From: Amphiscolops sp. MND2022 | Lineage: Eukaryota | Assembly (NCBI GenBank): GCA_964187785.1 | Contig: OZ076409.1 | Coordinates: forward strand, 33,730,001-33,794,000 | Length of the DNA stretch: 64,000 nucleotides | Direction of reading: 5' to 3' | In this document: piece by piece, positions 33,320-56,921 of the stretch | Layout of the letters: each line of letters begins with the position of its first letter | Numbering within the stretch: position 1 is the stretch's first letter | Translations under genes and position numbers: made by a program | The notes under the pieces: model-generated | Seen by the model: the letters and a program-made list of their open reading frames with translations, nothing else | Databases searched by the model: none | Told to the model about the DNA's origin: nothing

Positions 33320-33412
33320 TAGTTGAGCGCGGGACTCAAACGTGCATACGCCTGCTTCCCAGGACGAGTAACGACACGGAGACACACACGTTGACCACTA
33401 GACTAAATGCTA
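33320..33412 (-). repeat. tRNA-derived (SINE-like) sequence; second copy at ~38382-38473
   Basis: Minus strand has an A-box-like TAGTCTAGTGG and a B-box-like GTTTGAGTCCC about 60 nt apart. No clean cloverleaf. Confidence 0.4.
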
Positions 33413-35451: not shown

Positions 35452-37772
35452 CCATCACGTAAATTTTGGTGACCGCAGAATGTTTGGAATTGGTTATACA
35501 TTGTAGTTTATCCTTTTCACTTGAACTTTCCAGAAGTGGTCGTTGAACTTTGAGAGACTCGTTTGCCATAATGACTTTGTTTTGACGCATGAAATTTGGC
35601 ATGTGGCAACTTTCTGGGTTGGTAGATGTGCTGATAAAGTTTTGTTGTTGTAAGATTTTGGGAAGAGGGTTTATTAGATCGATTTTAGTAATTGATCGTA
35701 ACTTGGAATGCGTTATTGTATTTTATTTGTCATTGTTTGACTCAGTAAAGATCTGTAATCTCTACAGATCTGTACAGATTGCTGCAGAAAAATGTTTCAT
35801 CTTTTTAGCATAATGAGATTTCTCTCCAGTTCTAAACATTTTCGTTATTCGTTTGACATCGCTGTGGGGTTTTCAATGCGTTTCTGAGCATGACTTTTTT
35901 TCGAATCTGCACATATCTGCAAGGTTCTGCAACAATTCTGTAGATCTGCACAGGTTCGCAAAGATCGAAAACCTGGGAAGTAATTTCCTTAAGGTCACAA
36001 TGGCCTGAATGCACGCTGTTGCTTTCAATTTCGTTTTCATTCGCAAAAGGCAATTTTCATTGACCACACCAACTGAACTTGAAACATTTGATCAATGCCC
36101 TAAAGTAGCGAGTTGAAAAATATTCTAGGCTGAATTCTGACCAAAACAGGACTAATGGGTTATCCTGTACACTTTGATTGCTAAAAACGGATAATGGTTA
36201 CATTTTTTCCATTTAGGTTTTTTGTAAAAAACACAAATTTTTAGTGAACAAAACTTGGGTAAGTAGCGTGAAGAATCAGCTGTTTTTTATAAGCTTTTGA
36301 GCTACTTTTTGAGCTATATACCCACTGAAATTATAGAAAAACCGCAAAGTTTCTTTAAATTGTTTTTCTTTGGGTATATTATCTACAAAATTAATATTTC
36401 TTGTTGAAAAAATAATCTTATTAGTTCAGTGTTTCGTCCTTTCACTCCGTGTATTGTGAGTGGTACTAACAAAAAAATCAAAAAAATGCACAACAATTGA
36501 TCAAAACGGTAGGAAAGTTCAGATACCTTCTGAAAAAACATGCTTAGTAGCTAAAACGTTCGTAATTGAGCTCTGTGGAAAATCACACTCACAAAAAGAT
36601 GCAAAGACTAAATAGCATGGAACGGTCGAAAAGTTTAGCGTTTTGTTCAACTCTTCGAGCCTTAATAACTGCAATCCTAGCACTAAATTTATGCTGAAAA
36701 GATTGTCGCCTTGTTGTTTAAACCTATGGTTTTTCATATTCACGAGACAAAATCGAAGTTGTACAAACATTGTCTAACAAATTGGAATAACATTTTCTGA
36801 ACATATTTTGTGCAGTTTTTGAACACAAAACTCCTGTTTTTCTTTTAAATACGTATTGGGTAGCTAATTGTCCCAACGTTGAATTTGGAATTCTAGGTCA
36901 GGCAATTGTTCAAAGAGTGTTGGAAAAAAACAATTTATCATCAAACATTGGGTTAGGTTTTTTGAAGGTTGAATTTCGTGGAAAAAGCCCTATGTGTTGC
37001 GTATAAAATTGGAACTTAGCAAATTGAGGGGAAAGGTGGAACTGTTTGACATTTTTCTTTCCCTTTTAGAAAGAAATGAACGAAAACACTCAGGTACATA
37101 ACATACTTTTTTGAGAAGTGTGAATATTTTCTGTCGAATTTTTTGAGCAAGTTCTTGTGCATCGGGTACGCTCGAGCATTAGTTAAGCCGTTGCTGGAAT
37201 AATTCAGGGCATAAAATATCCCGTGCTCAGTGGGGGTCTTGTGTTTGTTAATTGGTCAAAACAATTTCTGAAGCTAGTGATGGTGCGCTCCAAAACATTA
37301 AATTCTACAGGCACGTTTTTCACCACACCAAGTTTTTGTGTAATAGGTACTTTTCATGGTACAGTGACAATGAAACATCTAGAAATAGACGGGTTGGCAA
37401 CCCGGGTATTCAAATAAGTGAGTGGTTTTTCTAAAAACTGCAAAAACTCAAACGAAAAAATGATCTTCAAGTTTTCAAACAGTAATTCACTTTTTTCAAT
37501 ACAGTCTATTCTTTGATGGGGTTTTGAAGTTTTCTCAAAACATGGATTTTATGAATTCATATGCTTCAGAAAAAACTTCCTCATTTATCAGTGTTTTCCT
37601 TTAAATTCATCCTCGAATGCTGACTATTTTTTGTTCCTAAGATAACGAAAAGTTTGACAATTTCAATCTGATCTCTGCTATGTACAAAAGCAAAAACAAA
37701 TCAAAGTAAAACTCTAGCGAAATTTTTGAAAAACATGACGCATTTGAAAAAAATCATGAATTTGTTGTACAC

Positions 37773-38026
37773 TTAACCGACCGGAGCTTTATGAGAATTA
37801 GGCTGCGGTTTCGTTTTCTTCGAAGGGCAACAGTTGTTTTTCATTACGGTCGAGTGGTTGAGCAACTTCTCGAATATTTCTATTAGCGAGATTGCACTGA
37901 CGCCCAACCACAGCCCCAAGAGTCCTCCAATATTACTAACCAGGGTTATGAACGTCATAAAGGGCACAATCTCAACCACCATTTGCTGTCGACTGTTTTG
38001 GTAGTGAAATGTCACGTGAGAAACGC
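37773..38026 (-). CDS. Duplicated terminal exon (TM2 and C-terminus) of the DEG/ENaC channel
   Basis: GVSHVTFHY...LVSNIGGLLGLWLGVSAISLIEIFE. Intact copy of 57822-58075 with 2 amino-acid changes. Confidence 0.8.
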
Positions 38027-38898
38027 CTTCGAACAATGATTCTCTGGTTTGGTTAGTTTCTTGACATCAACAAAGAATTGAAATTCAAAAATTTCAGAAC
38101 ATTAGAGAGAGTTATAGTTAATCAGCATCTGCTAAAATCCAAGTACTAAGCACTTATGGTAAAAGTGCACAGTGCACAAAAAGCGGACCATTTAGAGTGA
38201 GTACAAACAAACAAAACCTTAAAGCGTGAATCACAGTATTACTTAATTTAGGTTGAGAGGCAAAATGTGCAACATGCAAAGCGTTGGTGCCTCCTCCTTC
38301 GAGTTTTATATTTTATTGGACAAAAATATTGGATAAAAAAGTCGCACTGGGCTCAACTACTTCTGCAGAGATAAAAGTTATAGTTGAGCGCGGGACTCAA
38401 ACGTGCATACGCCTGCTTCCCAGGACGAGTAACAACACGAAGACACACACGTTGACCACTAGACTAAATGCTAAGTTGTTTCCGGCTTCCACCAGCATCT
38501 AGTAACTGCAGGCAAAAAAATTTGGTAAAGTTGCAGACAGCTAAATATTTTTTGTTTCCACTGTCTTTTTACTTTTAGTTTTTTAGTTGGAGAGGCTAAA
38601 AGACAAGGGTTGCAATTGTGAGCAGAAATCTCCAGATATAAAATCTTCTAACCTACTAAGCTACGGTACCAAATCTGCAGTCAAATGTTCAAGCTATTCT
38701 CGAAAAGAAGGTGTCACTGGAAACCCATGTTTCCGACCTTTGCAAATCTGTGCAGATCTGTTGCACTCAATCCTGAAGAACCATACCGATCTGCAGAAAC
38801 TTTACAGAAGTGTGCAGATTCTCTTTGAAAATTTTTGCAGAAATATGTTTCTCTGCAGGTTCTAAGGAACCAATAGACTGCTTTTTTGACTTCTTCAA

Positions 38899-39627
38899 CT
38901 ATTTTATCAAGTATTTTGGCTGACCAAGGTTGACCAACTTTCCATCACCCAAAATTCTGGAGAAGAAAACTTGTCCCCATCTGTCGTAACCTTCATCCTC
39001 ACTATAGTTGGAATCATATGAATTCTGTCTAAAGTGGGCCTCTTGGTTACTACCAATTGTAATCAACCCAGCAAGATTTTCTGTTTTGTTTTGATCTAAT
39101 TTGCGAGTTTTACTTTGCTGCCGTCCGCCTGACTCATGGTCATCAGCTTGGGGCATCTGACCTGACATATTCAGATGCCGTCCATCTGACCGAAGGTCCC
39201 ATTTGGTGTTTTTAGCTCCTTCACTTGCTCCTACAGCTCCCCTAATAGTGGGCAACACCTTTTCTTCAATTGCTGCATTTAGTATCTCTACTATGTGGGA
39301 ATTTAAGTCAGATTTGATTTCCTCAAATCTTCTCGACATTTGAGTGGAAATTTTTGAACTGATTGCTCGACTTGTCTCAGCTGTAATCTCACAATTCACA
39401 CTCATATTTGCATTCGGGGATAACCTAATACTTTCTCCAATAGGGTCAGTATTTTCTTGCCGTCTCCCGAACCTCAGGTCCATTTCTAAATCACTATTAT
39501 TTTCTTGTTCATCTAATTCGTTTCGAACATACGTTCCTAACATAATCTCAAGGTTTTCTACATCTGACATTATGTCTGATTGTCTTGAACGCTTTTCCTT
39601 AGCTTTCTGCTTCCTTGTAGAAGGCAT
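38899..39627 (-). CDS. LTR-encoded gag-leader-like ORF (MPSTRKQKAK...) reading out of the solo LTR into flanking DNA
   Basis: Open from ATG 39627. The LTR ends at ...SEDEGYD (38982), and the last ~27 codons come from the flank. Confidence 0.6.
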   Translation of the reverse strand: MPSTRKQKAKEKRSRQSDIMSDVENLEIMLGTYVRNELDEQENNSDLEMDLRFGRRQENTDPIGESIRLSPNANMSVNCEITAETSRAISSKISTQMSRRFEEIKSDLNSHIVEILNAAIEEKVLPTIRGAVGASEGAKNTKWDLRSDGRHLNMSGQMPQADDHESGGRQQSKTRKLDQNKTENLAGLITIGSNQEAHFRQNSYDSNYSEDEGYDRWGQVFFSRILGDGKLVNLGQPKYLIK

Positions 39628-40513
39628 CCCAGGGAGAATATCAAGTTTCAACAATGAATTGATCAAAGAGTAGGAATTTCACAGCAAGGTTGTACGTATT
39701 GTAGTAAATATATTGAATGAATCTCAACCTTCAGTTCATCAGTATACATACCTTCACCACCATGACACTCAATATTTAGAGTGTCACTGGTCAAAAATAG
39801 TAATGATGTCATCATTAAAATAGCAACATCCTCAACTATTGCATAATATTTACAATAAATAGAACATAGGATGATTTGAAACATTACGTCTTTTACCCGA
39901 CATTCTATAAATAGAAACAGCATTAAACTAAAATTGTGTAATACAAGCTAACAGCAACATTTCATGCATCTGAGAGAATTATTTAACTAATTGGACCATT
40001 GGTCCACATGACTGCAGTACAGTACTAGTTCCTGCAATTTGATTGGTCGAAAGTAATTTGGACAACGCGTCAACTTGACGGCAACACTGTACCAGTTAAA
40101 CGCGTTTCCTTTACCTTTGACAGCTTACTACATTAATTGATTGAATAATAATCTAATTTTACAAACTGCAACAGTGAACCAACTACATAATTAGGTGAGT
40201 ATACTAGTTCACAATGGATAAAATAAATCATCAGAATTACTACATGCTGTTGTATGAGAGTAAATATGTAGGTAAATAGTTGCCGTCGATCTGACCTTAG
40301 GTCATAGATTATAAAATCGTTGTGTATATTGGCTAAATTAAGCACCAAACTATCGTGATTATTGATATACATGACAAAATAATAGTATTCATCAGTACGT
40401 TAGGTGAGTTTTAAGTTCTGCTCATATCGGTGGGACTCCCGGTCTGGGAACATTAAGGTCGTCTTCAGGGGTGATCTGATATAGTAGGCCATCGCAGGCG
40501 GCAGTCTGCGACA
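38982..40513 (-). mobile_element. Solo LTR, second copy (via the duplication)
   Basis: TGTCG...CGACA ends and TSD CCATC at 38977-81 and 40514-18. Confidence 0.88.
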
Positions 40514-41935
40514 CCATCACGTGAATTTTGGTGACCGCAGAATGTGTGGAATTGGTTATACATTGTAGTTTATCCTTTTCACTTGAACTTTCCAGAAGTG
40601 GTCGTTGAATTTTGAGAGACTCGTTTGCCATAATGACTTTGTTTTGACGCATGAAATTTGGCATGTGGCAACTTTCTGGGTTGGTAGATGTGCTGATAAA
40701 GTTTTGTTGTTGTAAGATTTTGGGAAGAGGGTTTATTAGATCGATTTTAGTAATTGATCGTAACTTGGAATGCGTTATTGTATTTTATTTGTCATTGTTT
40801 GACTCAGTAAAGATCTGTAATCTCTACAGATCTGTACAGATTGCTGCAGAAAAATGTTTCCATCTTTTTAACATAATGAGATTTCTCTCCAGTTCTAAAC
40901 ATTTTCGTTATTCGTTTGACATCGCTGTGGGGTTTTCAATGCGTTTCTGAGCATGACTTTTTTTTCGAATCTGCACATATCTGCAAGGTTCTGCAACAAT
41001 TCTGTAGATCTGCACAGATTCGCAAAGATCGAAAACCTGGGAAGTAATTTCCTTAAGGTCACAATGGCCTGAATGCACGCTGTTGCTTTCAATTTCATTC
41101 GCAACAGGCAATTTTCATTGACCACACAACTGAACTTGAAACATTTGATCAATGCCCTAAAGTAGCGAGTTGAAAAATATTCTAGGCTGAATTCTGACCA
41201 AAACAGGACTAATGGGTTATCCTGTACACTTTGATTGCTAAAAACGGATAATGGTTACATTTTTTTCCATTTAAGTTTTTTTTTTTTAAAAAAAACTCAA
41301 ATTTTTAGTGAACAAAACTTGGGTAAGTAGCGTGAAGAATCAGCTGTTTTTTTAAGCTTTTGAGCTACTTTTTGAGCTATATACTCACTGAAATTATAGA
41401 AAAACCGCAAATTTTCTTTAAATTGTTTTTCTTTGGGTATATTATCTACAAAATTAATATTTCTTGTTGAAAAAATAATCTTATTAGTTCAGTGTTTCGT
41501 CCTTTCACTCCGTGTATTGTGAGTGGTACTAACAAAAAAATCAAAAAAATGCACAACAATTGATCAAAATGGTAGGAAAGTTCAGATACCTTCTGAAAAA
41601 ACATGCTTAGTAGCCAAAACGTTCGTAATTGAGCTCTGTGGAAAATCACACTCACAAAAAGATGCAAAGACTAAATAGCATGGAACGGTCGAAAAGTTTA
41701 GCGTTTTGTTCAACTCTTCGAGCCTTAATAACTGCAATCCTAGCAATAAATTTATGCTGAAAAGATTGCCGCTTTGTTGTTTAAACCTATGGTTTTTCAT
41801 ATTCACGAGACAAAATCGAAGTTGTACAAACATTGTCTAACAAATTGGAATAGCATTTTCTGAACATATTTTGTGCAGTTTTTGAACACAAAACTCCTAT
41901 TTTTCTTTTAAATACGTATTGGGTAGCTAATTGTC

Positions 41936-43059
41936 TGTCGGAACGACTGTCAGTACTTGTAGTTGCTGGATTCAGTCTGTTCCCTTCTCCATTAACGGAG
42001 GCAAACTGATTGGTCAGTGTAAGGACGATATTGGTAAGGTCTCCGATTTGTCTATTTATCTCATTAAATCATTGCTCAATGTTATAACTGTTACCATTTT
42101 GACGTCTAGTTAAAACGTCGTCAGAGTCAACGTCTACCATTTGGTCTCTGGATAAAAGTTCAGGGAAACTGGCTTCACTTTCGTTATCGCTTGATCTATC
42201 CATATTTCCAGTTTCTACTTGTCTATTTTGACTACTTTGAGATCTGGTAATTACCATGAGAAGTCTGGAAGTTTTAAGTTGAATTGAAATGTTTTAATGT
42301 TAAAACAAGGATTGATAACACGTAAGCAAGGTAGTAGACAACTGGTTATATCAATGGTTACAACTCGTGAGTGAGTTCGGTTTTACCCGATTGTGTGACT
42401 ATAAAGGTGTGTTAGCACCTTTCCTTTTAGCCAATGACATTCGATTTACTAATTGCTATTTAATTGCACTTGACGACTTGTGGCTACAGTCGTGACGGGT
42501 GATAATCGGCGTTTAAGTATTCATGTTTGATCTAGTATGACCGCAAGCACCAGTCATTTTAGCACGCAATTGTCTCAATTACCTCTTAAACTGAGCCTTT
42601 ACTACCATGTATCTTTATCATCATGGTGACCAATTCAATTATCGTTTGGAGGATAATTACTAAAAGGCATTGTACAAATTGCTAATATGAATGAACGAAA
42701 TGTTGTTGTTATGAATGATTGAAATTTCTGGTAATACTTTACATGTAATATAAAAAATGGATGAAGAATGATTAAATGACAAACTATCACGATAGCTGAC
42801 GACTGATTGTTTCAGTCAAATTTATGGGAATCACTTGTTGTGACTGAATATTTCAGTCTTGGTTTCTAAACGATGCACAATAACATGAATGAATTTAGTA
42901 TTGATGACTGTTAGTTCCAGTTGTTTTCCTTTCAACTGTGTTGTTCGGGGAATAAATTACTGCAATGTATTTTTATGATGATCTGTAATTTAGGGAGTTT
43001 GATGTATAAATTAATGTTTTAGAGTTCGTTTAATTCCTTCATGCTTGGCGGGCATGACA
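41936..43059 (-). repeat. 3' LTR
   Basis: Direct repeat of 55799-56921, preceded on the minus strand by the PPT. Confidence 0.95.
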
Positions 43060-43072
43060 TTCCCCCCTTTTT
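43060..43072 (-). promoter_or_regulatory. Polypurine tract
   Basis: AAAAAGGGGGGAA immediately 5' of the 3' LTR on the minus strand. Confidence 0.9.
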
Positions 43073-43879
43073 GAGAGAGAGCAAGCTGTAGGGGTAATGG
43101 GTAAGGTGAACGGTCGAGTTGAGAGGTAGCAGGTGTTTGAGTGGAGTTTTGAACAGCGGCTGAAGTGGCATGCAAGGTATAGAGAAACGCGTGGGTGGCA
43201 ATGTAGCTTCTGGAAACTTTCGGAAGCGTGAATGGACAAGGTGAGGCAGGCAAATAGTAGGTAGTCGGAAGTTGAAGTCTATTTATAGGAACGGTTTGAC
43301 AGCCACGTCATCCGTGTAGTGCGCATTGAGTGTAATGTTTGTTTAAGCAACTTTTCATCGATCATCGGCAGTTGATTGATTTGTTGAGTTGCTATAGTGA
43401 AAGTCAGTTGAGTCAGTTACTGTTTGAATTGAAAGTTGATCCCGCTTTAACTTGAGAGTATTCACCTTCGTTTTTCAACCGTTGGCTTTGCTCATTCTTC
43501 CACAATGATGAAAATATGTCCTTGTTTGGCTTTTTTGCCCTGTTAGTCCTGTATTTTTCGGGTATCGAATGTACTGATAAGGTTGTGCGGGGAATTAATC
43601 TTTTTTGGCAGGGAAATACGACTGCTTTCTTTCTGCTTCTTGTAATTAGCATTTGATATTTGATGGAAGTAGGTCCAAAATATGGTTCCTTGAATGTCCA
43701 GTATTACTCGAGTAGGACTGTTTGATAAGGAGGTCAGGTATCCATTGTATATTGGAATAGGTGATCAGTCTATAACAACAATAAATGGAAGAATGAGCTT
43801 TTGCAGTCGTGTCTTCGTCGCCGATTATTATTTCCCCGAATAGTATCAGTTATTTCCTTTGCTCCCAGCGTTATCCAAT

Positions 43880-46800
43880 ATGTCTGATGATGAGGCAGGT
43901 CAGTCCTTTGGTCCCGGATTAGCTGAGTTAGTCGCTGAAGTGGAGAATCAGATGGCCGGAGAGGGGGCTCAGCTAGGTGGAAGTGGAGGCGATCTGGAGT
44001 TATCAGGATTATTGCTGGAGACCAGTTACTGCTGTCAGTTTGCAGCTCGGGTATCTTCTGCTAATATCGCGGGTTTAAGCGATTTATTGGATGTCGTTCT
44101 CTCCCAGGAAATTGGTAAGTGCTCACTTCGTATATTGTACTACTATTAGTGGTATGTCTAAAGCTTAAGGGAGAGTTTAGTCTTTCCTTCAAGTTTGCAT
44201 ACTTTCAAGTTTGAGTCCCGTAATGTTAGGGAGTGTCAGGCGTAGCATTTTAAACAGGGTGTTCTCGTGTTTGTAGCTGATGTCAACATGTCCGACGTGG
44301 TCAGTTATTTACGTCGCTTTCGTGCTTCGATAGCCACTGGAACTGCTGAGTGTTCTGAGACGGAGGCGGCGCCCATCCTTCGTCGCCTGGATGCCTTTCT
44401 GACATCGCAACTTGGTAAGTGAATTCACGGTTACTGTGAAGTTAGGTTATCTGCTGGGGGGGTCTTTTGGTTCTTTTGTTGTTCGATACCAATGCATGCA
44501 GTATACGGTTGCTGTTCTATAACAAGGCGGTGATAGATGCCTTCAGTCGTTGAGTCCAAAGTAGGTGCTGTGAACTAAGGGTTACTTTGCAGATGCCAAC
44601 GTTCGAGCTGATGTCATTGTGGGGCAATTCACTGAATTGTTTCATCGTTTGGAACGGGAAATTCAGCAGTGGGTGAAGGCTGCAATCGAGTCTAGTTTGG
44701 GCCGGCTAGGGACAGTGGGTGCTCTCGCTGTCGAGGAATTCCTGGACAAATTGAAGGAAGCGTTGCGAGAACTGGGTCAAGCTCCTGTCGTTCCCCGTGG
44801 TGGTGAGACTTCTTCTCTACCACGCTCCGTAGCTGGGAGCATCTCTGGTGTGGACGATCGTCGTGCGGCAGTGGAATCTGATGTACCGTCTGAGTTTGGA
44901 GAAAAAAGCGTCGTTCCTTCTGGAGGGACTTCGTCTGCTTTTGCCTCCACATCAAAGCCTGGTAAGAACTCTCAAAAGATCACGTGAGGGGTTTTAGTTT
45001 TAGGTGGTAAAGAAATAAGAGATGTATATAACTTACTACTACTGCTTACGGACAAAAACGTTTTTTTTTGGAAGTTTTTGGCTGGACAGTGGTGCTATGT
45101 GATTTGCGTTGTGTGTTAGCAGGACGGAAGCGTGCTATCAAAACGTTGAAACCCTCATTCTTCGTTTCTGGGGTCGTGGGGACCTTCGTTGGTTTCCCCC
45201 GAAACAAACGTGTGGTGGACGGGTTCGCAAGGTGTCGTCTGTGCCGCGTTGATTTAAGCATTGCCGGACGTGGGCTACACAACTTGTGGGATCATTGGAA
45301 AGGGCGAGAGCACACTCGTCTAGAGCAGCGCTTCCGCATCATGTCCAATAGGCCTCTATTGGACAAGTCCTGTAGGCCCGTGTCATTGGACGAGGATCGG
45401 AGAATTCGGGCAGCCAGAGTGTCAGAGCCACCTGTCATTCTAGAGTCAGAGGTGAAGCTGACTGTTGAAGAGCGGATTGCGGTTGAATTAGAAGAGGAGG
45501 CAGCTGGTTCGAAACCCGAGTTGTCGGAGTCCAGTGCTTCATACCTCTGGCTATGCTGCTTCATCAATAACTTTGTTGAACTGAGGGACTTTTCAAGCGT
45601 TGTGCGGTCCATGGAAGTGTGGTCCAGTAGCATGCGGGGCGAGCTGGTTTTCAGTGAGAGGGTGCTATCATACCCGAAATGTCAGGTAATACATGTTTTG
45701 TTCATCTTTTTTTTTGTTCGTGAATGTTGGTTCTTGTCTGCTAGTTCGTGTTTGCAGTTGCTTACTGTTTTCGTTGGCAGTACTTGCTGAGAAGTGTCAC
45801 TGTTGTATGTTTGTTGTAGAGTCTTGTGTTGTACGGCCTGTATCCATTTGTTATGGAGAAACTGAGCGATCTACTCTCTGCTGGGGCGCGGGTTGGTCTG
45901 CACGTCCGCACTGATGGTTCGTTGAAGCGGGTGGATTGCCACATTTTTGACGCTCTGACAGTCAAAATGGTTGTGCTAGCTGCTATTCCTGGGGGTGGTG
46001 AGTGGGAACGCTCACTACTCAAGATTGTTGTCTCTGTTCTGGCCTGTGTGGAGTCTCATGCGGGTCTGTGTGCTGTGAGTGTGGGAGAGAATCTGCGTCT
46101 TGGGCGTGCGTTAGCTAGCATCGCGCACCCAGCCATACCTTTGGTTACTCGTCGTCTCGATGTGGACTGGCTGAAGTATTTGCTGCGGCGCACGTTTCTG
46201 CGAGAGTTGAGTGGACTGGAACCTTTCTGCGCGTTGGAGTATTTCCGGTTCCGCTTAGCCGCCGTCATCGGTGGTTCGTCGTTTGACAATATGCCAAGGC
46301 TTCGAGAGGTAATTGATTTTAAGTTTGTTAGCGCATTTCTTTTTCTTTTCGGGGACTGGTGTGAGTATGTGTGGTAATGTGTGGTCGTGGTCTGCTTTGT
46401 TCTAACTCGGTGCTAATTTTGTTCTAGTTCGTCCGTGGTGGTGCTGCGCGCTTCCAGGAGTTGTCGGCTCTGTGCACCGATGGGACGACCTCGGTGCCTA
46501 CTTTGGTGTCCACCGGTCAAATACTGTGTCCGAAACGCAGAGTATAGCCAGTATGGAGACTCAAGTCTTCAGCGATGCTTTGTCGAGGCCGCGATTTGCA
46601 GTTTTGAAATTTCTGGCAGAGACAGGTCAGTATAAGAGTTTTGAGTGTTACTTGTGTACGGGTGTGTCGGTACTAGTTTTGTTGTAATTGCTGATTTGGG
46701 TGTTATCGACGTCTGAGTTGTTAGGGTGTGTAGTTTTTCGACATTTTGTTTGTGATTCGTCTGTGTGTTTCAGTTGTTGCAAAGTGTCCTCGCTTTTGTT

Positions 46801-48053
46801 CTGCTGGGCGAGATCGGAACTTGTGGTTTGAGCGGGAGCTGGCTGCTTTCCTTCGAGAGTTATTGTGTCTGGTCGTCGAACCCTCATCAATACCACCTGA
46901 TTTTGAAGTCCTCGCCGTGTTGAAGTTGCGACTGGGCGAGGGTAAACCTGTTGACAAGGCCCGATACCAAGTGCTGTTCGGCCAGTACTTCCGCTTCGAC
47001 GTGGTCAGCCAGAAGCCTTTCTTTTATAAAGAGGTGCAGAATTTCCTCAGGACTGTGTGCGAGTCGTGTATTGGCGATTATGACCAAGGGTGGGTTAAGC
47101 ACCTCAGCTTGTTGCCGCTGGATCCTTATGCTATTCAGTTGGTGTCAATGGATCGGCTGACAGACATCCTTGTGGGTACACTTTCTGTCCTCAGCTTTAG
47201 GGATCTATGCAGAGGAGATCAAGGTGCCATCATCTTGCAGCAGTATCGCGAGGTAGTCAACTACTTCAAGCATCGATGGGAGTCCAATGCTTCGGTGGTG
47301 CCAGTTATTGACGATGCCATGTCTTTGTGGCTGTCATATCCTTCGTGGGACCGGTGCCAAGAATTCCGGGGCATTGTGGAGATTCTTTTTGTGGGAATGC
47401 TCCATGATTCGTATGCTGCTGATTTTCAGGATGTAGGAGACACAGCCCTCGATGGCAGTATCATGCTGTCAAGTTTGAACATTATTCGAAGCTGGATGTC
47501 GAGTGGTCTCGGCGGGCATTCTCGACGCTCGATGATTGGTTTTGTTAGACACTGCAGCACTACAGACATGCAGGTTTCGCGTTTAACCGATGAAGGCAGA
47601 GCTATCCCCTGGGACCAATTGGTTAAGAGGGGGGTTGACGAATCACTTGGGCGCTGTGTCACTGTACTGGAGACGACTGGTGGACTACCTACTCGCCCTG
47701 TCATTGACGATTATGTGTCTGCTGTTTGTAATCAGTTGCGGACAATGGAGTCGAGTCCAACTGCTCCCCGTCGGAGTCCTGTCAAATCAACGCGTTCAGC
47801 AGCTCAAGCGCCGAAATTGCAATCTGAGGTCGTAGTGTCATCAGCAGGTCCGAATGAGTCAGCTCCGAAGCGCAAAGCGGTCAGTAGGACGTCAGGGGGC
47901 AATCACGGACAGAGGACCGGTGGGAAGCCGGACAAGAAAGGGAAGCGCACTCTGGCTACCTTTGAGACTGAACCTGTACAAGCCAGCAGGCGGGCTTTTT
48001 CACTAGAAGAAAGCAGTAACGAGGGCGGTTCCAGCCGTTCTACAGAGTATTAG
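43880..48053 (+). CDS. Seven-exon antisense gene inside the Gypsy element; ~1090-aa BED-finger / hAT-transposase-like protein (one apparent 1-bp deletion in exon 6)
   Basis: Exons 43880-44114, 44277-44414, 44593-44961, 45120-45685, 45820-46308, 46428-46625 and 46774-48053. All introns are GT-AG with matching phases (1,1,1,0,0,1). Contains ARCRLCRVDLSIAGRGLHNLWDHWKGREH (C2H2 BED-like) and RWDDLGAYF. Confidence 0.8.
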
Positions 48054-48469
48054 TTGGCAGAAGGACTTGTTTTAGTAATCAGACTTTCCATATTTCTTTG
48101 TGTTCTCAGCTTTTTGTTTATTTATTGAGTCCTGATATTGTGATTTGTTTTGTATGCTGCATTTAATTTTGGCCTGAGTAGGTCTTGCACTTTCTAGTAA
48201 TTTAAGTAGATGGTTTCAACCAACATAGTACTCTTCTTTGTTTTTCCCTAGGACTTAACAGTTAGAACGTCACAAGAGGTTTTTCGCTTGTTTTGCATGT
48301 GACAACTCCATTTTTTTTTGTGTAGGACGTGAAACCTAAAGTTGCATGGCTCTTATGCTTGCTTTTTTTTGTTGTTTGTGTGTACGTTTATGCATGATGC
48401 TGGACTGGCTTTGTCTTTCTTAAGTGAGTGTATGGGGTAACCCATACTTCGCTATGGTTTCGAGTGGAC

Positions 48470-48766
48470 TTACGCTCTAATTGTTACGGCGTCTACAGAG
48501 AATTTTTTGAGGAAGTTCATGTTGGTTATGGTTGTCACTGCGGTAACCATTAACATAAACATTTGTTCACGCGTCAAACTGTGCTGTGCATGGTACTCGA
48601 GAGCCAGGTTTTTCATGTAAGTTATTAGTGAAGGCTCGAGAATGGTAACGAGACATTCAGACCTTGGCCTTCCAGTCCTTAGCGCCGCACTGTAAGGTAC
48701 GTGACTGAGCATCTAGTTCCTTTCGATGACGGAGAGCTCAAGGAGTGTATCCTTGGTTTGATGCAT
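48470..48766 (-). other. Short sense-strand ORF remnant between pol and the antisense gene
   Basis: MHQTKDTLLELSVIERN*MLSHVPYSAALR...IRA; no recognisable motif. Confidence 0.3.
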
Positions 48767-49878
48767 GACTTTTTTTTGTGTGCATGTAATATTCATGTTA
48801 TAAGTCTTTAGGACTATTTTGCATGTATTTTAGTGTGTTTCAATATATTACATGTAGCGGTCTGTGTACGCGACGTCATCATCGTTGATGTGTGTCCTGG
48901 GACGTCATCATACGTGATGTGTGTCGTCAAGATCGCGGGTTCTTACATTATATTAACTTCGGTGGTAGGAAGTTGTTAGACTGAGAACTATGGGTGTGCG
49001 TGGATTTTAATACTAAGCAGAGGTTGGGGCCGCGCACTCCTGAATCTTTTCCCAAGCGAGGCGAAGCCTTCGCATATCTGGTTACTATTAAGGGGTCGGG
49101 CATTCATTGTTTTCTGAATTTGGCAAGTTCTTGTTCTTACCGGCGTTGTGTTATCGTCTATGGTTGGTTTTTTTATTTTTGTTTTTGATGTTCAGTTCAT
49201 TGGAAAAGGTGAATTCCCGTCGGAACCACCTATACAAAACTAACACTGAATCCAGTTGCTAAAGAGCAACCTTCATCTGTATGGTGACGACCAACCACAC
49301 AAGCGCGCTTTTCGACGACCCACCAACGCAGCCAGCACTATGGGTATAAGTCGAAATGGGTGGGATGTTGGTTGTGTTGTCCTAACGTTTGCCAGGCAGC
49401 AGATTGCCACTGTTAGTTTGTTTGCGCTTGTAGGGAACGTTCTTTCCGTTCACGTTTCGTTAGTTGTGTTTCAACGGTTTTCTAAGCGAAGTGTTTCGTT
49501 TCGATTGTTGATGTGGTAGTTTTGGTGTGAATTGAATAAATTATCGTTCACACTTTTGCGCGCTACGTGTGCTTCCGGGCCGCGAGTGTTGGGATGATTG
49601 GCGTTTGCAGTCGTTGCCTTACCGTTCGTTTGCTTCTTACGTAGTAGTTGATGCTAAGTAATTAGACAGTTCAAACAGAGTTGGCGGAAGTGGATGGTCA
49701 TTTAATCGTATTAATTGGATTGTGTACTAGGTTGTCCGGAATTTCCAATACTGCTTGTTGAGTACTGGTATATAGGGGTGTAATTGTAAAACAATTACTT
49801 TTACGGTCAAGGAGCGAGACTGTTGGTGACTGCTGTTAGCAGTCGTTGGTTTGAGAACTGCAATGAGGGGTGGGTGTT

Positions 49879-52800
49879 TTACATGTTTCTGTTTTTCGGA
49901 AGTAACTGTTGCAGTGAAGGCGTTCCATGTAATTCGTGCATCAAGAAATCAGGGTACGTGGTAGGTTTTGGGTTGTGTCTGAGCCCGTATCGAGACATGG
50001 TGTGTCGTGATGGCGCTGGAGGGCGGTCGTTTGTTTGGTGTTCAGAATTGTTCATGCTAACATTATCCGGTTGTGGTTCTTGTGTTTCAGCTTGGCTTTC
50101 AGGTATGGATATGTTTTGATCAGATTCTATGTTTTGCCGATCGTAGTAGATCATTCCATGGTCTGCGTGTAACTCTTCGAAGTTTGATTGTTCAGGTATT
50201 ACTTGTTGTGGCTGTTCATGGACATGGTCGGGTAGGTTATTTTCAAATAACTCCTGTTCGTTGAGAGCGTCAGGATCTTCGAAATATTGTGATGCATTGT
50301 CTTGAATGTCTTCGATTGGTGCGTTTGGCGTGAATGGGCGAATCTCATTCTGTGAACGCATTGGGTGCGAAGAGTGCCAATCTTACGTATGATGTAATTT
50401 GAATTTGACAAGACTTTGACCACTTTGTATGGGCCTTCCCACTTGAATTCCTTGAATGGAATTTTTTCAGATTGCTGAGACAGTCTTTTGTTTAGCAGAA
50501 AGGTGAAATCATTTACTTTCAGAGGTGAAGCTTGCGCTTTTCGGTCGTAGTAATTCTTGTATTTGTGAAAGGCTTCGATTATGTTGTCGTGTGTTTGTTG
50601 GAATTTTTTGTTCATGTTATCTAGTATTCCAGTGACGTCAGTGGTGTTACGTTGTTCGGTTAATGGATGGCCAAATTTGACGTCAAGGGCATTGAACGGA
50701 ACACGTCCGTGGAAAACTTCAGTGGGTGTGCATCGGATAGCCTGGTGGTAGGTCGTGTTATGGGCCATTACGGCCATGTTGACGTATTTGTGCCATTGCG
50801 GTGAATCAGCTGAGATGTTGATTTTGAGAATTTGTTTCAGTTTTTAATGGGAACGTTCAGCCATCCCGATCGTTTGTGCGTGCTTTACAGAGGCGTGTTC
50901 GATTTTTATACCGGCAGACTCCATCAGAGCGTTGAGTAGTTGAGATGTGAATGTCGTTCCCTTGTCAGTTAAGATTGTTTTGGGTACATACGAGTGCTGC
51001 GTGAAGATTTGCATGAGTGCTTCCACGACCGACTTTGTGTCCGGTTTACGGATTGGTATTGCGAAGAGGTACCTAGAAAAGTAGTCGCATGCAGTGAGGA
51101 TGTGTGTGAATCCGTTGGAAGGTGGGAGTTCACCGACTAAATCGATTTCTAGTATGTCTTCTGGTCCGTTGCAGGGGTCGTATATTTGTTGAAGTGGTGG
51201 TGTGATTGCAGCTTTTTGGATTGGTTTTGAGCGGATGCAGTCCTGGCAGTTCGAGACGTATTGCAGTACCAGTTCAGAGAGGTTTGGTGAGTAGTACCTT
51301 TTACGCAGTTCATGGAGCATTTTGTTACAGCCAGGGTGACCTTGCAGAGGGTCATCGTGCAGGGATTGAATGATTTTTCGAATGGTTTCAGGGGGAGTGA
51401 CAACTTGTTTACTCTTGATTTTACCTGTACCATCAAAAAAATTCCTGTACAAAACGTTGTTCACTACTTCAAGTCTTTTCTTGTTTTTAACTAGTTTTTG
51501 GAAAAACTGACTTTCAAAGTTCACATGATTAGGAAGGGTTTCCTTTTGGTTCAAAACTCTAATCATGCGTTGGATGTCAAGGTTTACGACTTGATCCTGG
51601 ATGATTTGAAACTCCCCATTGGGGCGTACCTGGTTTACCACGATGTCATGAAGCTTTCGTCTGAATCTGGTGAACGTCATCTCGTCATGTTGCCCTGTGA
51701 TGATGGGTGTGATTTGATGACGGATGGTTTCTATCCTCTCGAGAAACTGTCCACTCGATTCGTTGCTGCACATGGGGACCTGGTTCAGGATGGCGTTGAT
51801 GGCTTCATTTTGTTTGGTGGTGGTAGTGTGTTGGTCATCAGGTATGTATTCTTCTTCTTCTTCGTCCTGCTTGGGTGTTCTTGATGCCGGGTCGATCTCG
51901 ACGTGGAAGACTGGTATCTCGTCGTTGAGTTTGAGGTGTATTCTTTCCTCTGGTCGTATGTCAAGACGAGACAGGTAGTCTGCAGCAGGGTTCTCAGTTC
52001 CCGGAACATGGGCAAGTACGAATTCAAATTGGAGCGTCTGATCGCAGTAATTCCATAGCTTCGGGGGAATCCGTTTAGACTGAAAAAATCGAGTCAGTGC
52101 TTTATTGTCCGTCATTACTATTGTTGGTTTTTTGACACCCCAGAGTATGTGTGCGAATTCATCGAATGCGAAATGCATCGCCAGGAATTCCTTTGCGTAC
52201 ATTGTTAGGGACATTTGGCCCTCCGTGAATCGTTGGGATCCAAATGATACTGGGGCGTACGTCTTCAGTGGTCCATCGTTTGTTTTGGTATAGTCTTCTA
52301 TCAGGAGGACATATCCTGCCGCATGCTCGCTGGCGTCGCACATTATAACAAGCTGTTTATCGGGTAACGGCAGACGCAGCGAAAGTTTCGCAGCTTTGGC
52401 AAGATTTTCGTTAATCTCGAAGATGATGTCCTTGTGCTGCTGGGTCAACTGGAATTTGACGTCTTTTTGGAGTAGTTTGTACAGTGGGGTGAGTTTTTCT
52501 GCTAGGCGTGGTATGTACTGCCTGTAGAACTGGACAAACCCGATGTACCTTTGGAGGGATTTGATTGATGTGGGCAATTTGATCTCCAAACGCACACTTT
52601 GACATCGACAATTTCAGTCCTGCTTTTTGGATTTGTTGGAACACAGCTTCAATGTTTGACAGTAGCTCATCTACAGTGTGGGCAGCAATCCCAATGTCGT
52701 CGACATATTGGGCACATTTATCCGCTTTCACTAGTGCATCAACGTACTCTCGCACCGTGCTGTTGAATGCTGATGGGGATCGGTTGAGTCCTTGTGCCAG

Positions 52801-54597
52801 TCGTAGATAAGCAAAAGTTCGACTTCCAAAATTAAATGCCAACAGTTGTATGGATTGTTCATCCGCCATCTGCAAACAGTGGTACGCCTGCGAGCAGTCC
52901 AGCTTGCAGAAGTACTTCTTCCCTGCCATGTGCTGGGCGGCGTCGGCGATGGTGGTGACTGGATGATTATGTTGGTTGTAATCATTTTTCAAGAGGTGGT
53001 TGATTCTGCGCAGGTCTACAAGAATGCGAAGTTTCCCATTGGGTTTGCGCTGGGCAAATATTGGTGAGGAATACTTGCTGTACGGCAACGTCGTGATGAT
53101 CCCGTATTCTTGCATCAGCGCTAGTTCGACGAGCAGGTCATCTTTGAGGTTGGTGGGTGTGGGTAAGCTCTGCGCGTAGACTGGTTCATCATGCTTCGGA
53201 GTGAGTTTGATTTTGAAGTCAGTATTGATGCCTATGTCGAGGCGGTGTCTGGCGAATACATTGTTGTACTTCACAAGGAGGTTCTCAATTTGTTGTTGTT
53301 CATGTTCATTCAGGATTGAGTTCTCCCATTTGAAGTTAGCAAGGAACTCCTTGCGTTGTTGGTCGTCTGCTGTTGGGTCCAGTTTCTCCTCTTCACGGAG
53401 TTGAGTGATTTCGTCATATATTCGTCTTTCAATGCGGTTCAGCTTGGACGGGTCATCAGATGTCTCCGGGGTTGGGTACCATCTGCGGTTGGTTTCGGTG
53501 CCGGGTTCCTGGAACAGCTGGTTCAGTACGTTGTTGGCTTCGTCCGGGTATTTGGTTATTAGTGTCAATTGTTCGTTTGACATTGGTTGTAGGTTTTTTG
53601 CTTGATTGGGAGTCATTATTTTGAAGGTGGCCACTGTCGTGTTCGGGTTGAGGGTAATTGTATGGCAGGTGAGGTTGGTGATCTGGACATGGCTTTTCTT
53701 CTCAGTGATTTGCGTTAGGGCGGGGGACACCAGTAATTGTGTCTTCCTTTCAAAGGCAGGAAAGGTTTCCACTGTGCCCTGGATTGTCCCGAGGTCCCTT
53801 TCTGCTAGGACGGGGACAATAATTTGGTGGTCCGGTTGTATGACTGTTTTCTGTGTCGTTCGTAATTCGATCATCTGGATTTTGTATCGTCCTCGTTCTG
53901 GTTTTAGTTGCAGGGTAATATCCGGGAACTTGACTACGTTGTTGGCAAGGTCAAGTGTCACTGAATACTTTTTGAAAAATGACATTCCGATCAAGATGTT
54001 ACCCATGGTTGGAAGAATCATGAAGGTTTCCTCCAATACTTTACCTCCGATGAAGAAGCGAAGTAGTACCTGTTTCCGGACAGGGACGATGCTTCCGTTT
54101 GCGATTTGGACTTTGAAGTCCGGTGCTGGGTACTCTTCGAGGAGTGCGGCTGGGTGTGCAGACAGGATTCGTCTGAGTTCGTCCTCTGACATTGCACTTC
54201 TTATTGCTCCTGTGTCGAGGAGTCCGTGGTTCTCGTATTCTCGGAATTGCAATGGGACGCACAACATCTTGTCCTTTTTGTTTAATTGGAGTGTTGCTGT
54301 TAACACCTGGATCGCCACGTCTTTCTTTCGGTTCATTGTTTTCCTTGTACAGTCAGTTGTTGTAGTCGAGTTAGAGTGCTGTTTGTCTTCTGTCGTTTGT
54401 AAGTTCACGTCCGTTGGTTCGGAGGGGGGGTTCACTTTGTCATTGGTTGTTTCGTGGTTAGTTGTAGTCTTAGGTTTCTGATCCTGCCGAAGATCAGTTG
54501 CCCAGTTTTTGTAGTTCTTCGTATAGTAGTAGTTGTTCATGTTGCGCACTTTGTTATTGTAATAGTCAGTCGGATGACGTGGCTTCAGAAGTTTTTT
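49879..54597 (-). pseudogene. pol: Pol polyprotein (aspartic protease, RT, RNase H, integrase), disrupted
   Basis: LLDTGA; YVDD; CDAS..KE...TDN..NPAADYLSR; H-x5-GH...CQDC; IDLVG/TDKG/AERSH; WEGPY. Disruptions: a deletion and frameshift after SKCAFG (~52590), TAA at 50844, and a frameshift near 50350. Confidence 0.95.
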
Positions 54598-56120
54598 GGC
54601 TGGCTGGATGATCCTTCGGTGAATTCCTGTTGGTAGTAGTCGTCACTGGTTTGCTGTTGTTGGTCCCCTGGTGCAAGTTCGTTCATTTCATTTGCTGGGT
54701 AAGGGTAGTTGTGTGCTCTTCGGAAGTCGCGTCGGAAGTCCCTGTTTTCATTTGTGGTTTGCCTTTTGTATGGCACGCTTCCGTAGGCGGAGGTTTGGGG
54801 TATTCTGTAACGGCAGTCTTTTGCGGAGTGACCTCTATATCCGCAAATTTGGCAGACCAGTTTGGCATTGTATTTTGGTTGTGTTTCTGCGTTGTTATTT
54901 TGCTGTTCGGGCTTTTTCTGAGGTTGTGAGTTGTTGTTGCCCGCTGCTTCGTCACGCAGTCGTTTTCGGCACTCAGCCCATTTGTGTCCGTAAGATGCGC
55001 AGTATCTGCAGTTGCCATCGAATTTCTTTTTGATTGTTGGTCGTTCGTTTTCGTTCCTCTTCTGAACAACTGGCTTGTTTGGGACTTCTTGTGTCTGGAT
55101 AGTTTGGTTGAACGGTTGGAGGAGTTGTTGGTTTGGTAGTAACTGGGCATATTGACATCTTCTCTGGACGAATGTTTTGATGTCTTCAATGGTGGCATTG
55201 TGTTTTCCTGCAATTGCCAGTTCGTTTTGGAGCTGGATCGGTAATTTGGCAAATAGGAAGGTCTGGACAATTTCCTGTGTCTTTTCGCCGTAGGCTTGTT
55301 TGGCAATCTTTTTGTAATTGGCGAGGAAGGTACTGAATGACTCAGGGGCCGGATCGTATCGTAGCTGGTCGAATTTGAACTTCGAGACTTCTGAGAGTTC
55401 TTCCTTTGCGTATTCTTTTTTGAATGCCGTCAGTATATCTCTCAGTGTCGTTTCTGTCGTGATTGTTAGGGTTTGCCAAAACTCAACTACGTCATCTCTG
55501 AGAAGACTCCGAAAGTAGTTGAGTTTTTGTTCTTCGGTTAGTTTGTGGGCATGTGGTCGTAAGTGGTTGAGCAATAAATGCTCGAATTCATTGTATTTGT
55601 CTCGATTTCCCTTGAATAGAGGTACTTGGGTCTGCAGGATTTTTGGATGGGTCAAGGTTTCCCCCATTGTACTGCGGAGATGGTGGATTTCCGTCATCAC
55701 ATCTGCTATCTGCGGAAAACTTTCGTCACTCCTTGGTGTCACGTTGGGTGGTGTTGTTCGAGATCCTGATGGTCGTGGGTTCGAGACTCCTGTCACCATG
55801 TCGGAACGACTGTCAGTACTTGTAGTTGCTGGATTCAGTCTGTTCCCTTCTCCATTAACGGAGGCAAACTGATTGGTCAGTGTAAGGACGATATTGGTAA
55901 GGTCTCCGATTTGTCTATTTATCTCATTAAATCGTTGGTCAATGTTATAACTGTTACCATTTTGACGTCTAGTTAAAACGTCGTCAGAGTCAAGGTCTAC
56001 CATTTGGTCTCTGGATAAAAGTTCAGGGAAACTGGCTTCACTTTCGTTATCGCTTGATCTATCCATATTTTCAGTTTCTACTTGTCTATTTTGACTACTT
56101 TGAGATCTGGTAATTACCAT
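54585..56120 (-). CDS. gag: Gag with two CCHC zinc knuckles; start codon inside the 5' LTR
   Basis: 511-aa ORF with VPLFKG...KLNYF.SLLR capsid-like region, CRYCASYGHKWAEC and CQICGYRGHSAKDC. Confidence 0.93.
   Translation of the reverse strand: MVITRSQSSQNRQVETENMDRSSDNESEASFPELLSRDQMVDLDSDDVLTRRQNGNSYNIDQRFNEINRQIGDLTNIVLTLTNQFASVNGEGNRLNPATTSTDSRSDMVTGVSNPRPSGSRTTPPNVTPRSDESFPQIADVMTEIHHLRSTMGETLTHPKILQTQVPLFKGNRDKYNEFEHLLLNHLRPHAHKLTEEQKLNYFRSLLRDDVVEFWQTLTITTETTLRDILTAFKKEYAKEELSEVSKFKFDQLRYDPAPESFSTFLANYKKIAKQAYGEKTQEIVQTFLFAKLPIQLQNELAIAGKHNATIEDIKTFVQRRCQYAQLLPNQQLLQPFNQTIQTQEVPNKPVVQKRNENERPTIKKKFDGNCRYCASYGHKWAECRKRLRDEAAGNNNSQPQKKPEQQNNNAETQPKYNAKLVCQICGYRGHSAKDCRYRIPQTSAYGSVPYKRQTTNENRDFRRDFRRAHNYPYPANEMNELAPGDQQQQTSDDYYQQEFTEGSSSQPKNF
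54591..54597 (-). promoter_or_regulatory. Putative -1 ribosomal frameshift site A-AAA-AAC at the gag/pol junction
   Basis: gag ends CCA AAA AAC TTC TGA. The -1 frame is open (KLLKPRHPTDYYNNKVRNM) into pol. Confidence 0.75.
55786..55798 (-). promoter_or_regulatory. Primer-binding site (tRNA-Leu-like)
   Basis: TGGTGACAGGAGT immediately after the CA of the 5' LTR. The tRNA identity is tentative. Confidence 0.75.
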
Positions 56121-56921
56121 GAAAAGTCTGGAAGTTTTAAGTTGAATTGAAATGTTTTAATGTTAAAACAAGGATTGATAACACGTGAGCAAGGTAGTAG
56201 GCAACTGGTTATATCAATGGTTACAACTCGTGAGTGAGTTCGGTTTTACCCGATTGTGTGACTATAAAGGTGTGTTAGCACCTTTCCTTTTAGCCAATGA
56301 CATTCGATTTACTAATTGCTATTTAATTGCACTTGACGACTGGTGGCTACAGTCGTGACGGGTGATAATCGGCGTTTAAGTATTCATGTTTGATCTAGTA
56401 TGACCGCAAGCACCAGTCATTTTAGCACGCAATTGTCTCAATTACCTCTTAAACTGAGGCTTTACTACCATGTATATTTATCATCATGGTGGCCGATTAA
56501 ATTATCGTTTGGAGGATAATTACTAAAAGGCATTGTACAAATTGCTAATATGAATGAACGAAATGTTGTTGTTATGAATGATTGAATATTCTGGTAATAC
56601 TTTACATGTAATATAAAAAATGGATGAAGAATGATTAAATGACAAACTATCACGATAGCTGATGACTGATTGTTTCAGTCGTATTTATGGGAATCACTTA
56701 TGTGACTGAATATTTCAGTCTTGGTTTCTAAACGATGCACAATAACATGAATGAATTTAGTATTGATGACTGTTAGTTCCAGTTGTTTTCCTTTCAACTG
56801 TGTTGTTCGGGGAATAAATTACTGCAATGTATTTTCATGATGATCTGTAATTTAGGGAGTTTGATGTATAAATTAATGTTTTAGAGTTCGTTTAATTCCT
56901 TCATGCTTGGCGGGCATGACA
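55799..56921 (-). repeat. 5' LTR
   Basis: Direct repeat of 41936-43059, followed by the PBS. Confidence 0.95.

Follow-up and report, generated by a model that had tools for sequence, protein, structure and literature searches.

How does a gene of seven exons come to sit, introns included, inside a long terminal repeat (LTR) retrotransposon, and does it belong to its carrier? The question is raised by a 64,000-nucleotide stretch of the genome of Amphiscolops sp. MND2022 (assembly GCA_964187785.1, contig OZ076409.1, positions 33,730,001 to 33,794,000, forward strand; hereafter the window, whose numbering is used throughout unless stated). A Ty3/Gypsy element occupies the minus strand at 41936-56921, 14,986 bp between and including both LTRs, and on the plus strand, between the end of its pol gene (49879) and its 3' LTR (41936-43059), lies a gene of seven exons and six introns (43880-48053). 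This antisense gene is an integral accessory gene of a clade of Gypsy elements, is under selection, and is not a nested insertion. The fuller explanation that we favour, and regard as probable, is that a clade of ~15-kb Ty3/Gypsy elements carries an accessory gene encoding a trans-acting nuclear factor; a regulatory or host-interaction function, taken on its own, is a more tentative proposal.

The distribution of the gene bears most directly on its membership in the element. Exon 7, searched as DNA against the 1.07-Gb genome, gave at least 144 first-look matches, of which 40 were scored, all at 96-97% identity, and the ten best other copies, read over 16 kb each, are without exception complete elements with both LTRs, the gene, and the same internal order. 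The first-pass annotation of this DNA had proposed looking for the region in other full-length copies, and all ten have it. Within the window, an unoccupied paralogous site (36868-36872) carries a single TTGTC, and the element is flanked on each side by the same pentamer as a target-site duplication (TSD); together, these indicate that the whole 14,986 bp inserted as one unit. The gene shows no borders of its own, as the annotation had also claimed: a comparison of its flanks for inverted 12-mer matches with at most one mismatch, read as potential terminal inverted repeats (TIRs), returned three, where 200 shuffles give an expectation of 2.6, and matching 8-bp flanks accompany none of the three. 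A nested hAT insertion in the window copy is ruled out by these chance-level inverted matches and by the lack of an 8-bp TSD. More broadly, a one-off event, be it a nested insertion, a host gene caught between two LTRs, or open frames arising by chance, is at odds with the many near-identical exon-7 matches, with the ten complete gene-bearing elements, and with the empty site, and we assign it negligible probability.

Membership extends beyond the window's own family. With the RNase H-integrase (RNaseH-IN) protein of the window as query, the first look gave 36,728 candidates, from which the 74 best were taken; all 73 of these nearest pol relatives other than the window itself had, at a distance of 1-3 kb past pol and on the other strand, a match to exon 4, 5 or 7 (pol-to-exon coordinates were matched by eye). 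They comprise 24 copies of the window family and sister lineages of 18, 8, 19 and 4 copies, told apart by exon-7 open frames of 456, 449, 442 and 461 aa, respectively. A further, divergent lineage is represented by exon-7 protein P0004, which is 38% identical to that of the window and 99% identical to a locus on another chromosome; in the single 8-kb stretch read for this lineage, a related pol on the opposite strand ends 2.1 kb from exon 7, and its integrase C-terminus is 72% identical. The claim that the gene travels with the retroelement is thus borne out by ten of ten full copies, by every one of the nearest pol relatives, and by one divergent lineage. An ancient acquisition at the DNA level by the ancestor of the clade is compatible with these data, and may be how the gene was gained.

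Some features of the wider copy population are recorded here in their own right. First-look exon-7 matches number about 1,000 in the genome (1,023), and most of those listed are free of stops; the corresponding figures are 1,125 for exon 5 and 5,465 for exon 4. The zinc-finger exon may be more widespread, for instance in truncated elements or in other carriers, or the first look may simply have been looser for exon 4. At one locus (G000:C13:45783329-45793443, genome coordinates), four exon-7 copies follow each other on one strand at spacings that alternate between 1,614 and 3,956 bp, accompanied by two exon-5 matches and one exon-4 match; here the 3' part of the gene has been amplified locally in tandem. 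In a P0004-type copy (L051, 1-5906), the integrase region of pol is duplicated within one open frame of 769 aa, and a second, partial pol lies downstream.

The structure of the gene was read directly. All six introns begin with GT and end with AG, with donors GTAAG, GTAAT or GTCAG and pyrimidine-rich (Y)nAG acceptors, and GC content is 52.6% in the exons versus 39.8% in the introns, in agreement with an earlier description of seven GC-richer coding blocks on the plus strand joined by six GT-AG introns. At third codon positions the GC content of the gene (0.52-0.53) is similar to that of pol (0.51-0.56). Joined as predicted, the exons of the window copy add up to 3272 nt (3n+2), and the frame shifts inside exon 6. 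The first-pass annotation attributed this shift to a 1-bp deletion near 46470; alignment to the ten other full copies corrects it to a 13-nt gap at 46477/46478. The missing 13 nt are present in all ten, and in 24 of 28 further copies aligned over exons 5 to 7 (29 were fetched, and one rearranged copy was dropped), such that an intact exon 6 does exist elsewhere. With the 13 nt restored, the predicted spliced frame spans 3285 nt, or 1094 codons and a stop, close to the ~1090 aa originally proposed; it is uninterrupted in 5 of the 10 other full copies, and exons 5 to 7 are open in 12 of the 28.

Comparison among copies provides the evidence for splicing and for coding. At every one of the 12 sites, 10-11 of 11 copies retain the splice dinucleotide, and at the five sites covered by the exon 5 to 7 set 27-28 of 28 copies do so, which satisfies the earlier suggestion to look for conserved splice sites. 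Apart from the 13-nt gap of the window, no exon varies in length in more than one of the 10 other copies, whereas length differences by non-multiples of three occur in 9 of the 10 for intron 3, in all 10 for intron 4, and in 8 for intron 5. We infer that the transcript is spliced at these sites, with strong comparative support. In order to separate changes that arose in replicating lineages from decay after insertion, we distinguished shared variants, found in at least two of 11 copies, from singletons. Among shared variants, 68 are synonymous and 19 non-synonymous, with 9/9/69 at the three codon positions; among singletons the figures are 72 and 131, with 72/54/77. The synonymous fraction of sites is 24.6%, and even against a generous expectation of 35%, 68 of 87 synonymous changes are highly improbable (binomial test, p=2e-16). 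The mean pairwise ratio of non-synonymous to synonymous rates (dN/dS) is 0.23, below one as the first-pass annotation anticipated for a functional gene. By exon, synonymous and non-synonymous shared variants number 4:0, 2:1, 8:7, 14:2, 15:1, 3:2 and 22:6 from exon 1 to exon 7, and in the same copies pol gives 27:6 for RNaseH-IN and 14:2 for the protease-reverse transcriptase region (PR-RT). The antisense gene is therefore under purifying selection, and within the family it is selected about as cleanly as pol.

These patterns also bear on the proposal that antisense RNA is what matters, through double-stranded or small-RNA regulation of the element, and that the reading frame is incidental. Antisense transcripts, with regulatory roles proposed for them, are discussed for other retroelements (PMC7264820), which lends the proposal some precedent. 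The 9/9/69 codon-position pattern, the 68:19 synonymous excess, the constancy of exon lengths beside variable introns, and protein conservation over long evolutionary distances speak against it; as the codon pattern, the constant exons and the deep conservation require selection on the protein, we regard an RNA-only function as very improbable.

One sister lineage illustrates how intron and frame can be confused. Among the 18 copies with the 456-aa exon-7 frame, open frames of 450-477 aa spanning exons 4 and 5 suggested loss of the intervening intron; this was rejected, because the segment is still present, so that such frames are read-through. Exon-4 and exon-5 match scores are identical or nearly so among the 18 copies, and the gap between the two exons varies from 164 to 176 nt, with 10 of 18 lengths not a multiple of three (computed by hand from match coordinates). 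Constant exon scores around a gap of variable, often non-3n length make the segment look like an intron with a length-variable tract. The read-through frame is open only in the 8 of 18 copies whose segment measures 165, 168 or 171 nt (e.g. G000:C3:37440762-37441976), and a retained-intron form of the protein is possible in this lineage.

What the gene encodes is less readily recognised. The protein is predicted to have a BED-like C2H2 finger encoded by exon 4, one conserved domain from exon 5 and another from the first half of exon 7, and a basic tail that is probably disordered. Exon 4 holds the motif C-x2-C-x11-H-x4-H, preceded by aromatic residues, and a BED-type finger is likely here; the sole Pfam signal in the gene is zf-BED over this motif (E=0.028), at 14.9 bits against a cut-off of 20.6. 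In exons 5, 6 and 7 no hAT-related Pfam family was found, and exons 5 and 7 had no Pfam match at all at E<=1 and matched no PDB sequence. Matches to Transposase_28 (PF04195) or the plant mobile domain were absent from every exon at E<=1 and from 30 exon-7 homologues at E<=0.1; the hAT dimerisation domain (PF05699) had no Pfam match in exon 7 or those 30 homologues; the Pfam scan of the exons revealed no basic leucine zipper (bZIP). For an RNase-H-like DDE domain, neither Pfam nor PDB profiles gave a match, and the exon-5 model, at a predicted local distance difference test score (pLDDT) of 40.6, is too poor to be used. Structure models were built for exons 5 and 7 singly. The AlphaFold model of exon 7 (mean pLDDT 54.6) is all-helical, and confident only over ~residues 20-210; no hAT structure was among its fold matches, the best Foldseek hit against PDB having E=2.2 and the best in BFVD E=0.087, with half of the model of low confidence.

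Homologues of exon 7 are numerous. Of 1.84 billion representative proteins searched in full with HMMER, 134 match at E<=0.001, a number that falls to 93 at a threshold of 1e-10 and to 27 at 1e-30, and none exceeds 497 aa; longer proteins containing exon 7, whether fused or spliced, were sought and none was found, and members of exon-5 homologue clusters include no long read-through forms, the longest measuring 285 aa. In the 10 exon-7 clusters that we looked up, all long members derive from ENA assemblies, and the only names are 'hypothetical protein', borne by three tiny JGI members. Many of these homologues stem from the window's genome or from a near one. Cluster P0056 is 21% identical to exon 7 of the window and at most 28% identical to anything in the window's genome, and so comes from another organism. 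The alignment shows majority-consensus blocks QYFRxD, FDP, PVVDDxxxxWLSYPxWxRC, TDMQVSRL, PWDQL and DxYRS, and the homologues share a common beginning after pyrimidine-rich read-through, which suggests that the exon-7 acceptor is old. A metagenome scan with an alignment of closer sequences found no relative; one metagenome locus recovered with P0056 as query (L052) was taken as spurious, given its bacterial-looking open reading frames (ORFs) and a short match at 30% identity.

The finger brings in the question of origin, for which the first-pass annotation favoured a BED-finger, hAT-transposase-like protein. Under this proposal the gene derives from a Buster/Charlie-like hAT transposase gene that was captured as DNA by an ancestral Gypsy element, has since been stripped of both ends and catalytic residues, and acts today as a DNA-binding or integration-targeting protein of the retroelement; being a statement on origin, it is compatible with the explanation favoured here. 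Its appeal lies in the spacing of the exon-4 motif behind aromatic residues and in the zf-BED signal, in introns that would argue for acquisition as DNA, and in the strand-strand-strand-helix order of the low-confidence exon-5 model. The segment after the finger resembles, as we presume, the pre-catalytic region of hAT transposases, which is a lead and not a test. Language-model look-alikes, also to be taken as leads only, point the same way for exon 4: led by unannotated eukaryotic clusters, they include, all with scores of 0.90-0.92, clusters named GTF2IRD2 (zf-C2H2_12 in 84% of members), FAM200B-like (zf-BED 10%), and SPIN-DOC-like zinc finger (FAM200-ZBED5_RNase-like 54%), and among the ten best family-bearing matches 9 share a family or clan. 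Yet these named look-alikes share just 154-163 of 256 features, when 9 in 10 true family members reach 170, and exon 5 has no usable look-alike. The zf-BED match falls below its cut-off; exons 5 to 7 and the 30 exon-7 homologues lack any hAT-related Pfam family; PDB searches with the exon-5 and exon-7 profiles and the exon-4 sequence gave no transposase at E<=10; and neither TIRs nor an 8-bp TSD accompany the gene. Thus of the earlier description the finger motif stands, with sub-threshold zf-BED support, and the hAT part found no domain, PDB or fold match, including in a structural comparison, made with the exon-7 model, of the kind that the annotation had recommended for the spliced protein. 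A hAT origin is possible, if on balance rather unlikely.

Set against its clean selection within the family, the rate at which the protein diverges between lineages is striking. Identity between the window and the four sister lineages is 95-96% for RNaseH-IN, 84-91% for exon 4, 70-82% for exon 5, and 69-77% for exon 7; that is, exon 7 diverges by 23-31% where pol diverges by 4-5%, and in most of the copies listed no stop interrupts the matched exon's frame. By these comparisons, divergence of the accessory protein outpaces that of pol several-fold and is graded along the protein. Fast divergence together with a purifying pattern within the family would fit a working protein that tracks a fast-changing partner, such as its own LTR or a host defence. 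A bolder version of the capture scenario holds that an animal Gypsy clade long ago domesticated an intron-bearing, Buster-type hAT gene, and retains it in antisense as a fast-evolving, sequence-specific factor that binds DNA or chromatin and steers integration or defeats host silencing. If true, this would be a retrotransposon whose accessory protein is a disarmed DNA transposase, engaged in an arms race of the kind that the excess of exon-7 over pol divergence suggests; we consider it clearly unlikely.

The same rate excess can be turned into an argument that the gene is a selfish passenger, captured once and kept only through its position in a successful element, whose protein is useless to retrotransposition and maybe serves itself or the host. 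In favour of this reading are the much faster evolution of the protein than of pol, the low constraint on exon 3 (shared variants 8:7), and a role that is proposed rather than demonstrated. A passenger without effect on the spread of the element should decay, however, and shared variants are skewed 68:19 toward synonymous change; lineages as distant as 38% identity still have the frame, as does another organism at 21-28%, and all 73 nearest pol relatives retain the gene. We therefore hold a passenger to be distinctly improbable, and return to an accessory gene that would act on behalf of its carrier.

The mechanism that we propose for such an accessory gene begins with its orientation. The genomic RNA of the element is the antisense strand of the gene, where introns go unrecognised, so the six introns are never removed and are inherited by every new copy. 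Transcription of the plus strand would start from the gene's own promoter, either in the 0.8-kb spacer between LTR and gene or in the 3' LTR; the spacer (43073-43879) presumably holds the antisense promoter and 5' untranslated region. The transcript would be spliced into the 3.3-kb frame and translated into a protein of 1094 residues, and the finger and basic tail suggest that this protein may act in the nucleus, in trans, on the DNA, RNA or chromatin of the element and for its benefit. It could activate expression of its own element, protect it from silencing by the host, or assist in targeting. Co-evolution with a fast-changing partner, be it the LTR of the element or a host defence, would explain why the protein diverges faster than pol in spite of an open and constrained frame.

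Several observations weigh against this explanation. No match to TATA[AT]A occurs in the 818 nt upstream of the gene, and no AATAAA or ATTAAA within 950 nt after its stop (48054-49000), where the nearest approximations are CATAAA at 48554 and AATATA at 48842. In Pfam, no known domain reaches its curated threshold in any exon or in the 30 exon-7 homologues, such that a DNA-binding or nuclear role would draw on one sub-threshold zinc-finger match and on composition, with structure models that are middling or poor. The pol survey covers the 74 best candidates, and any more distant Gypsy relatives without the gene would lie outside it. Finally, the faster divergence of the protein could in part reflect relaxed constraint instead of conflict.

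The carrier is a Ty3/Gypsy LTR retrotransposon, as its LTRs, TSD, primer-binding site, polypurine tract and gag-pol order all fit (Table 1). Self-BLAST of the window pairs 41936-43061 with 55799-56923 at 98.1% identity over 1126 nt; the LTRs, of 1124 nt, both start with TG and end with CA, and reading of the junctions places the 5-bp TSD TTGTC on each side. Intact LTRs and a TSD around the gene had been described before. Immediately after the 5' LTR, the primer-binding site (minus strand, TGGTGACAGG...) is complementary over 28 nt to the 3' end of a tRNA. Minus-strand ORFs match, in order, the Pfam families gag-asp_proteas, RVT_1, RT_RNaseH, Integrase_H2C2, rve and Integrase_p58_C. The window copy is dead: beside the gap in exon 6, its pol lacks ~86 nt at 52585/52586 that all ten other copies have, carries an in-frame stop at 50844-50846, and changes frame near 50200-50380.

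Table 1. Features of the retrotransposon and its antisense gene in the window, in order of position.
Feature	Position	Strand	Basis or remark
TSD TTGTC, left copy	41931-41935		Junctions compared with the empty paralogous site 36868-36872
3' LTR, TG..CA	41936-43059	minus	Self-BLAST; ends read directly
Polypurine tract AAAAAGGGGGGAA (minus-strand letters), adjoining the 3' LTR	43060-43072	minus	Read directly
Spacer, 3' LTR to ATG of antisense gene	43073-43879	plus	4.6% divergence from 10 other copies, small indels
Exon 1, begins at ATG	43880-44114	plus	Donor GT in 11/11 copies
Exon 2	44277-44414	plus	AG and GT in 11/11 copies
Exon 3, least constrained	44593-44961	plus	Shared variants 8 synonymous : 7 non-synonymous
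Exon 4, likely BED-like zinc finger and most conserved part of the protein	45123-45685	plus	zf-BED E=0.028; 84-91% in sister lineages
Exon 5, conserved domain	45820-46308	plus	Homologues 53-97% identical; model pLDDT 40.6
Exon 6, broken in window copy	46428-46625	plus	13 nt missing at 46477/46478
Exon 7, predicted all-helical conserved domain (~residues 20-210), then low-confidence region and basic tail	46774-48053	plus	134 homologues; pLDDT 54.6
Spacer, stop of antisense gene to pol end	48054-49878		Holds 71-nt subfamily indel at 48300-48372
pol, PR-RT-RNaseH-IN	49879-54642	minus	Pfam matches; damaged in window copy
gag ORF, two CCHC knuckles, extends into 5' LTR	54585-56156	minus	DUF1759 E=4.8e-5, zf-CCHC_4 E=0.005
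Primer-binding site TGGTGACAGGAGTCTCGAACCCACGACC... (minus-strand letters), complement of tRNA 3' end	55770-55798	minus	Read directly
5' LTR	55799-56921	minus	Self-BLAST; ends read
TSD TTGTC, right copy	56922-56926		Read directly

Other features of the carrier and its surroundings are noted in passing. The gag frame is open for ~107 codons upstream into the 5' LTR (55799-56156, minus strand), with an ATG at 56120, and the primer-binding site is translated within it; another ATG straddles the boundary of LTR and primer-binding site, and the counterpart in the 3' LTR (41787-42293) carries a stop. The window family splits into subfamilies by the 71-nt indel listed in Table 1 and by an indel of ~23 nt in the LTRs (42817-42841 and 56680-56703). 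The host locus is a tandem duplication of 5,062 bp (33074-36872 against 38135-41935, and 36867-38139 against 56921-58192; 97.8% identity over 3.8 kb), in which the element sits in the second unit and the first serves as the empty-site control. The duplicated locus carries exons of an amiloride-sensitive sodium channel, with a TM2-like ORF at 37773-38066 and an ORF at 58488-59909 that matches Pfam ASC (E=4e-21), in keeping with an animal host. Another repeat pair (19569-20028 and 61587-62061, 77.5% identical) overlaps an ORF resembling an integrase C-terminus (61957-62421), and is probably an unrelated transposable element.

The arrangement has counterparts in other retroelements. In the fungus Botrytis cinerea, Boty-like Ty3/Gypsy elements reportedly carry an additional gene in antisense orientation, brtn, described by Zhao and colleagues in 2011. 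The HBZ gene of human T-cell leukaemia virus type 1 (HTLV-1) has a spliced form. Its product is a small bZIP protein and the gene has one intron, whereas the gene described here has seven exons and no bZIP was detected in it. In two papers (PMC11963269, PMC7264820), HBZ and its HTLV-2 counterpart APH-2 are described as minus-strand genes at the 3' end of the retroelement that are expressed from an antisense promoter within the 3' LTR and code for nuclear regulators. The deltaretroviral genes and the Amphiscolops gene are thus alike in being protein-coding, antisense, and at their element's 3' end; an antisense promoter and a nuclear role are presumed for the latter.

Plant elements offer the closest match in layout. 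PMC11963269, PMC7264820 and PMC4408406 describe additional antisense ORFs between pol and the 3' LTR of Tat/Retand Ty3/Gypsy elements, such as gene23 of maize Grande and those of rice RIRE2, Silene Retand and PvRetro13. Most or all copies have them, in more than one lineage; they have been proposed to act in regulation or in the nucleus, and Grande gene23 is transcribed from its own promoter. Place and orientation are the same as for the gene in the window. By these accounts, the plant proteins have a Transposase_28 (TRP28), plant mobile or SMC-like domain, and no such domain was detected here; the plant ORFs are not described as multi-exon, the word 'intron' being absent from the main text of PMC11963269 and PMC7264820. 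With Buster-like hAT transposases and the domesticated ZBED5, FAM200 and GTF2IRD2, the exon-4 product shares a C2H2 finger with BED spacing; those matches are sub-threshold, no RNase-H-like or hAT dimerisation domain was detected, TIRs and an 8-bp TSD are lacking, and, unlike hAT transposons, the gene moves by the retrotransposition of its carrier. By analogy, it fits the functional class of antisense accessory genes (aORF-3R type), which is a class of function and not a family of homologues.

According to passages in PMC7264820 and PMC11963269, antisense accessory genes of LTR retroelements are on record from plants, one fungal family, and deltaretroviruses, and their function is open. We found no description of such an antisense gene in an animal element in open-access article text, in accordance with the first-pass annotation, which knew of no described animal Gypsy lineage of this architecture. 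The layout is known already, and what is apparently new is the animal host, the size of the gene (seven exons and 1094 codons), the annotation-free protein family, and the excess of its rate of change over that of pol. For annotation the consequence is practical, in that gene predictors will list hundreds of copies as host genes of unknown function. For the biology of these elements, sister lineages that are young, high in copy number and housed in one genome, several of which have the gene, form a natural series on the role of antisense accessory genes and on the reason for this gene's fast divergence relative to pol.

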